Source: Schmidtea polychroa (Eukaryota). Taken from it: 64,000 nt of DNA. The stretch is taken from contig CM097885.1 of NCBI GenBank assembly GCA_044892525.1, positions 127,100,001 through 127,164,000 of the forward strand. The letters run 5' to 3'. Below, piece after piece: positions 26,624 to 27,292 of the stretch. The notes under the pieces were generated by a model. It was given only the letters and a program-made list of their open reading frames with translations, did no database searches and was not told where the DNA came from. Within the stretch, counting starts at the first letter, position 1; every line of letters begins with the position of its first letter. The position numbers and the translations under genes are program-made.

Positions 26624-27292
26624 ATGAAGATTTTATCAGTTTTTTTTTTTTTTAATCATTGTTTACTATGTAATGTCAGCTACAGTTAATGAAAATAATT
26701 GCGAAGGTATTTGGCACTTATTTTTATTATATTTAAAAATTGTTCAGTTTGTGTTAAGTTTGTGAGACGCCTGAAAGATAGTCTAGATGGAGATGAAAGT
26801 ACAAATATCGAAAATATTGAAAATAAATTCAAAAAGATGAGCAAAACAAGTAAAGGAAAAGAATAAAGTCTGGTAAGGTATTATAACTGATTACTATAAA
26901 ATTGTAATTTATTTTTAGTGTTATTATATTGGAGGATTGGTAACATCTACTGCATATATTGTAAAACATTTGTCTCAGCCTTTGAGTTGGGTTATGCCCG
27001 CTGAAAAAGTCTGAAAAACTAAAAGCAATGGATTCACAAATTTGTGAATTAAAATATGGTATGTTCAGTTAAGATTTTAAATATTAATTCAACTATTTTT
27101 CAGACAAACCTATTGATCTTACTGGTATTAATCTAAACAAAGCTCGCGTTAAAGATCTCAAAAAATATTAGAAAGCTGGGGTGAAGAATGTAAAGGTTGT
27201 ACAGAAAAAACTGATTTTATCCGATTAATAAATGAAAAATGCCCATTTATGATCTTAAAGCAGCCAAGCAAAGAAATAAAGCCGATTTGGAG
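26624..27292 (+). pseudogene. MANF: Captured MANF/ARMET gene, 4 exons, in the 3' LTR
   Basis: Exons 26624-26706, 26748-26872, 26919-27058 and 27104-27292; GT-AG introns of 41, 46 and 45 nt. Signal peptide, [51 protein letters not shown] and C-terminal KADL. One stop and several frameshifts. Confidence 0.9.

Follow-up and report, generated by a model that had tools for sequence, protein, structure and literature searches.

The window, by which we mean the whole stretch of 64,000 nucleotides analysed here, contains a retroelement of 20,359 bp (20.4 kb) on the minus strand which lacks pol and carries, in each of its two LTRs, a broken four-exon copy of the gene for MANF. The LTRs start with TG and end with CA. 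The features of the element are given below.

25973..25976: target-site duplication CAAG, 4 bp (second copy at 46336-46339)
25977..30805, minus strand: 3' LTR, 4,829 bp
25977..26208, minus strand: conserved LTR end module of ~232 bp, directly followed by variable sequence in all subfamilies seen
26209..26568, plus strand: 360-bp segment common to a third subfamily (up to 99%), standing where host MANF upstream DNA was
26624..26706, plus strand: MANF exon 1, signal-peptide-like, with a frameshift within a T run
26707..26747, plus strand: intron 1, 41 nt, GT..AG
26748..26872, plus strand: MANF exon 2, bearing the stop found in 130/131 readable copies
26873..26918, plus strand: intron 2, 46 nt, GT..AG
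26919..27058, plus strand: MANF exon 3, frameshifted
27059..27103, plus strand: intron 3, 45 nt, GT..AG
27104..27354, plus strand: MANF exon 4 and 3' UTR to the end of the host-derived sequence, with two frameshifts and the stop codon lost
27356..27410, plus strand: remnant of the NDUFA7 3' end (earlier cargo), with AATAAA at 27389-27394
32966..37681, minus strand: gag open frame, 1,571 aa, with Retrotrans_gag (Pfam) and three CCHC knuckles
41481..41499, minus strand: primer-binding-site-like sequence, 8 nt inside of the 5' LTR
41508..46335, minus strand: 5' LTR, 4,828 bp
42155..42823, plus strand: second MANF copy, in the 5' LTR, 15,531 bp on, with one substitution, in intron 2

The initial annotation had read the four exons by hand as a MANF/ARMET-family gene, and this identity is upheld by Pfam matches to ARMET_N (E 1e-7 and 2e-7) and ARMET_C (E 1e-13) in read-through frames. 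The copies at 26624-27292 and 42155-42823 are on the plus strand and the gag frame and the primer-binding-site-like sequence, putatively that for tRNA-Pro, are on the minus strand; MANF is therefore present in both LTRs and antisense to the element, as had been proposed. RNA-like contigs from 2-3 of 3 runs have its three introns removed at precisely these positions, and the phases 1, 0 and 1 assigned to them follow from the exon lengths 79/125/142 of the host gene; positions and phases are presumably those of vertebrate MANF. The frame is dead, again as described, since the window copy is broken in every exon, and an intact frame with a signal peptide and a C-terminal ER-retention-like motif is absent in it.

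The element had been called a very young giant retroelement. The element is young, its two LTRs differing by only one substitution and one 1-bp indel, but "giant" needs a qualifier for an element of 20.4 kb without pol. No Pfam match to reverse transcriptase (RT) or integrase was found in the 1,571-aa frame, and a putative env-like region after gag has no Pfam match either; the C-terminal part of the frame contains hydrophobic, signal-like and membrane-like stretches, as judged by eye. Residues 125-518 share 39% identity with a giant polyprotein that bears RT and is encoded at another place on contig C1, but the two elements show no match at the DNA level, and the window element is therefore a pol-less relative of Burro and not Burro itself. 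A clear polypurine tract was not seen in the element, and neither Rfam matches nor tRNA genes were found in the 64-kb window. The genome covered comprises 781 Mb of AT-rich sequence in four large contigs, and a search of it returned no longer homologues of the gag frame. Three candidates for an autonomous parent were rejected: an LTR pair spaced by 30.5 kb turned out to be a segmental duplication, and two other long-spaced copies are the same element with nested insertions.

Other features are present in the window. A second retroelement, at 56826-63638, has an interrupted RT frame on the plus strand and identical direct repeats of 229 bp, which are 79% like the end module of the MANF-bearing LTR in inverted orientation. 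At 17847-20618 there is what is left of a small element, with direct repeats of 134 bp and, on the minus strand, a frame for integrase, and an unbroken frame of 231 aa on the plus strand at 54627-55322 contains Siah-Interact_N, CS and SGS domains (CacyBP/SIP-like).

The host gene and its LTR-borne copies

A family search of the genome identified one intact MANF outside any LTR (G000:C2:~64.446 Mb). Its frame is intact, with a signal peptide and the C terminus KADL, and it is 95.4% identical to the window copy with equal intron lengths. The presence of this parent in the same genome confirms the host origin that had been suggested for the cargo, and horizontal transfer is rejected on the same ground.

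Older subfamilies carry 236 bp and 1,230 bp of host DNA around MANF. At the host locus a solo LTR of 5.3 kb now stands between these two pieces, and the empty site of that insertion is seen in the LTR-borne copies; the captured piece was therefore ~1.46 kb of genomic DNA, which began ~660 bp before the start and ended ~135 bp after the stop. An origin from mRNA or from a retrocopy is rejected because the captured DNA has introns and no A tail, and reaches ~660 bp upstream and ~75 bp past the poly(A) region. At its right junction MANF is joined to the NDUFA7 3' end at a common AAGTT, and the left junction is without clean microhomology.

The genome contains ~220 LTR-borne MANF copies (223 matches to an exon-4 motif and 146 to an upstream motif, the host gene included in each). 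The 133 copies examined form a non-random set made up of those closest to the window, those with the best Pfam scores and the first-listed motif matches. Each intron is present in all 131 scorable copies, and no intronless MANF was found among these, nor any such joint in the DNA-like run. Lesions are shared among the copies, a point which the initial annotation had listed as a check: one exon-2 stop is present in 130 of the 131 readable copies and one exon-4 frameshift is common to 126 of the 133, none of which is intact. Judged from these sequences, the captured MANF was dead at or soon after its capture. Host upstream DNA is retained in 87 of the 133 copies, the median divergence of the LTR copies from the host gene is 2.9%, and the cargo decays by deletion. 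The further proposal that the cargo is multiplied through the LTRs and kept in solo LTRs is borne out among the genomic copies. The subfamily to which the window's MANF belongs arose by recombination, with a 360-bp segment ahead of MANF that is derived from the third subfamily. In one LTR (L062, C1:17.453 Mb) a part of the MANF cargo is triplicated in tandem.

One LTR slot with several fillings

A full element of the same family without MANF has a different 900 bp at the same place, which is NDUFA7 (Pfam PF07347) in the same position and on the same strand as MANF, that is, antisense to gag. Both cargoes include host upstream DNA. Among 30 loci chosen by the left flank of the slot, 19 contain NDUFA7, 10 contain MANF and 1 contains neither, and the slot has at least three fillings, namely NDUFA7 (with or without introns), MANF and a third piece. 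Since the sequence to the right of MANF is the NDUFA7 3' end, MANF has replaced most (the 5' part) of an earlier cargo.

The host NDUFA7 contains two short introns and is free of LTRs in the 30 kb around it, and its look-alikes in the genome number over 100. Both introns are present in only 4 of the 58 NDUFA7 copies analysed (3 of them with clear LTR ends) and missing from the other 54, in many cases exactly. The MANF introns had been thought to survive because they are antisense on the element RNA. NDUFA7, in the same slot and orientation, has however lost both introns precisely, and antisense orientation is therefore no guarantee of intron survival. In a tree of the shared LTR end, the intron-bearing NDUFA7 group is split from all others (100/100), and the MANF LTRs fall among the intronless NDUFA7 LTRs with weak support. 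The order of captures is read from this tree, which is midpoint-rooted and weakly supported in its inner branches. Very young expansions occur in both MANF- and NDUFA7-bearing LTRs.

The third filling (L266-L275, for example L273:1575-2420) gave 32 motif matches, and of 10 examined ~7 are the same piece. It has no Pfam and no Rfam match, and a search for its parent found none; its GC-rich core of 271 nt folds with a z of -2.3, and it is possibly a host non-coding RNA or gene. At locus L259 (G000 C1:~25.045 Mb), the sequence beyond this same ~232-bp boundary in a related LTR end is a 98-bp piece which is 99% identical to an HSP70-like gene ~4.5 kb away (a single case, the gene being named by eye).

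Spliced RNA and exon-confined T>C changes

The transcript evidence consists of unstranded contigs of three runs, from two studies, which were guessed to be RNA. The MANF introns are unspliced in the DNA-like run, and joints are seen only in the RNA-like contigs. Both host-type and LTR-type exon 2 occur in the contigs, the LTR type in 3 runs; in 2 runs it is joined across intron 2, MANF-sense, with the exon-2 stop retained. The LTR type accounts for ~27-32% of contig depth, which is a poor measure. The LTR-type contig equals one promoter-bearing solo LTR (L075) over 180 nt, alone among the 133 copies, and in one run an LTR-type contig is polyadenylated at 27410, which is 16 nt past the AATAAA derived from NDUFA7. 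LTR-type MANF copies thus appear to yield spliced, MANF-sense RNA in these contigs. Four sites downstream in the contig are host-type, and at the two that were checked the host letter occurs in 0/133 copies; these letters may come from a different strain or from the merging of contigs, and on their account no single copy can be named as the expressed one. The window copy has neither the burst of changes described next (1/173) nor host upstream DNA, and so its own expression is only putative.

Compared against the host gene, 10 of the 133 MANF copies carry bursts of 6-25 private exonic T>C changes, versus a maximum of 5 for A>G. By their shared sites these ten copies reduce to five events, one edited form having given rise to five copies, and burst-bearing copies with shared sites lie on different contigs. 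T>C in MANF corresponds to A>G on the RNA strand of the element. The clearest contrast is in L192, of the window's subfamily, where 25 of 74 exon Ts are changed in exons 1-3 as against 0 of 42 intron Ts (p 3e-6), with 27 T>C within 446 bp versus 2/608 and 1/693 in the flanks. In L210 and L058 the bursts end near the host poly(A) region, with 0/27 changed beyond it. The intron contrast is marginal in two of the five MANF events (p 0.017-0.023), and one event spans no intron. All four intron-bearing NDUFA7 copies show 15-28 exonic T>C changes against 0/37-38 in their introns, and these represent largely one shared event.

The base 5' of the changed A on the element strand was tabulated over the five MANF events and is U in 35/94, A in 31/110, C in 14/88 and G in 0/38 (p 2e-5). 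ADAR enzymes prefer their 5' neighbour in the order U>A>C>G. Clustering of A>G on one strand, confinement to paired sequence and depletion after G, by which an ADAR-type footprint is recognised, are all present. The bursts therefore likely record element RNA which was paired with spliced MANF mRNA, edited and then reverse-transcribed. The suggestion that antisense RNA from the LTRs meets MANF mRNA thus gains support from marks in the genomic copies. Planarians have ADAR2-dependent A-to-I editing, and transposon-like transcripts were found nearly free of edited sites in the published account (PMC8797187).

A proposed mechanism, its rivals and known systems

The structures and the footprints are observed, and we infer the steps that join them. 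With good confidence, we propose that a dead antisense MANF resides in a swappable LTR slot and that the element RNA pairs with the spliced mRNA, is edited by ADAR and is copied again. Capture would occur by recombination at the DNA level or on a long transcript, at short microhomology such as the AAGTT of the right MANF junction. Only antisense captures would survive, as a sense gene would add poly(A) and splice signals to the element RNA, and antisense introns would be invisible to the spliceosome. Intron-bearing genes are placed in reverse orientation in retroviral vectors, where their antisense introns likewise survive the RNA step. The cargo would keep its own promoter and be transcribed and spliced against the direction of the element. 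Element RNA could then anneal to spliced mRNA made by the host gene or by an LTR, its own introns forming loops; ADAR would edit the paired exons only, and reverse transcription would fix the edits. Copying across the spliced junctions in the same duplex may account for the exact loss of the NDUFA7 introns. The MANF protein would have no role.

The slot might instead be adaptive for the element, as a selected device in which housekeeping genes are held backwards so that duplexes with mRNA shield the LTR from piRNA silencing, which would become costly to the host, or tune MANF and NDUFA7 mRNA, the duplex also driving ADAR mutagenesis and intron loss. One slot filled repeatedly with whole housekeeping genes in a single orientation would fit this reading, as would the in-cell pairing with spliced mRNA indicated by the bursts, the very young expansions with both cargo types and the silencing of donor genes by captured sequences in plants (PMC13317346). 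However, the orientation filter accounts for the pattern without any benefit and the cargo copies are lost by deletion. Moreover, genic piRNAs are described as mostly sense and probably decay products (PMC8532177), and the names MANF and NDUFA7 are absent from 8 supplement files of PMC6824462, in which entries under transcript ids would be missed. We regard the adaptive reading as unlikely.

It seems quite doubtful that the slot serves, or once served, to express a useful protein, with intronless NDUFA7 kept as protein and MANF captured likewise before it died. This reading bears on NDUFA7 and not on MANF, for which 0/133 LTR copies are intact and the stop is nearly universal. Intronless NDUFA7 frames of 121-128 aa (host 126) are open in 4/58 copies (L117, L118, L120 and L124; loci at G000 C2:19.04 Mb, C3:20.08 Mb and C4:87.16 Mb), of which L117, L118 and L124 are located in recognisable LTR sequence and L120 is matched only to the slot and its right flank. 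Private changes are few in the coding sequence of intronless copies (0/293 in L119 versus 14/395 upstream, and 5/313 versus 24/392 in L117), dN/dS against the host is ~0.16-0.27 for L117-L119, and Burro1 has been reported, at second hand, with a functional IAP domain (PMC13465017). However, the largest sampled NDUFA7 group is open for 17 codons only, and if reverse transcription were corrected against host mRNA, the coding sequence would likewise stay near that of the host; the few private coding changes in the open-frame copies may thus reflect either selection or such correction. Finally, it is hardly credible that the T>C clusters are error bursts of reverse transcriptase or sequencing artefacts and not ADAR marks of mRNA pairing: the events are few (5 for MANF) and known from genomic copies, but they have a single direction on a single strand, are confined to exons, are absent after G and are common to copies on different contigs.

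Host-gene capture by LTR elements, host genes within LTRs and silencing of donors are already known. The host sequences that LTR elements capture are usually found as fragments, spliced and in sense orientation. ADAR hypermutation, with A>G clusters and a bias in the 5' neighbour, is fixed in retroviral and other viral genomes; the partner strand here is apparently a separate spliced cellular mRNA and not an inverted repeat or a replication intermediate. The window element resembles the planarian giant gypsy-like Burro/GYPSM1, as described in PMC6431247, in its ~5-kb LTRs, a gag with three CCHC knuckles and host-derived cargo. However, Burro/GYPSM1 exceeds 30 kb and encodes a single gag-env-pol polyprotein of close to 4,900 aa, as compared to 20,359 bp and 1,571 aa here, and its cargo is in frame in the polyprotein whereas that of the window's family is antisense within the LTR and retains introns and upstream DNA. 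The window element is thus a relative of Burro/GYPSM1 and not a member as defined. Host sequence is likewise carried and multiplied by maize Bs1, tomato Rider, Veju and BARE-2 through template switches, and siRNA cross-talk with donor genes has been described in maize (PMC13317346). In contrast to the systems as set out in that source, a single position of the LTR here exchanges whole genes together with their promoter region, and pairing with mRNA has probably left editing marks limited to exons. Cassandra TRIMs (10.1101/2023.07.14.548913) are also non-autonomous and are described with a host gene and its promoter (5S rDNA) inside both LTRs, but theirs is one conserved RNA-gene promoter whereas intron-bearing protein genes are swapped and decay in the window's family. 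A search of the open-access literature, which took in neither Repbase nor the first planarian genome paper, found neither MANF nor NDUFA7 described within LTRs of planarians, and no account of exon-confined editing fixed in an element.

Within one family, host genes are seen captured from the genome along with upstream DNA, expressed from the LTR, stripped exactly of their introns and displaced by another gene. The exon-only marks probably represent a genomic record of transposon RNA pairing in trans with spliced mRNA, which is normally hard to show. Letters that distinguish the alleles make two questions directly testable in a model animal, namely small-RNA cross-talk of captured genes with their donors and intron loss driven by RNA duplexes. 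With ~220 look-alikes of MANF and over 100 of NDUFA7 in this genome, the mapping of reads, the design of RNAi and the counting of genes will all be disturbed.

An effect of the element on host MANF levels is possible. The solo LTR near the host gene measures 5,283 bp (L070:9104 to L047:4387) and lies 425 bp upstream of the MANF start. It belongs to a related family (68-78% at the ends), was inserted after the MANF capture and may now influence transcription of the host gene.
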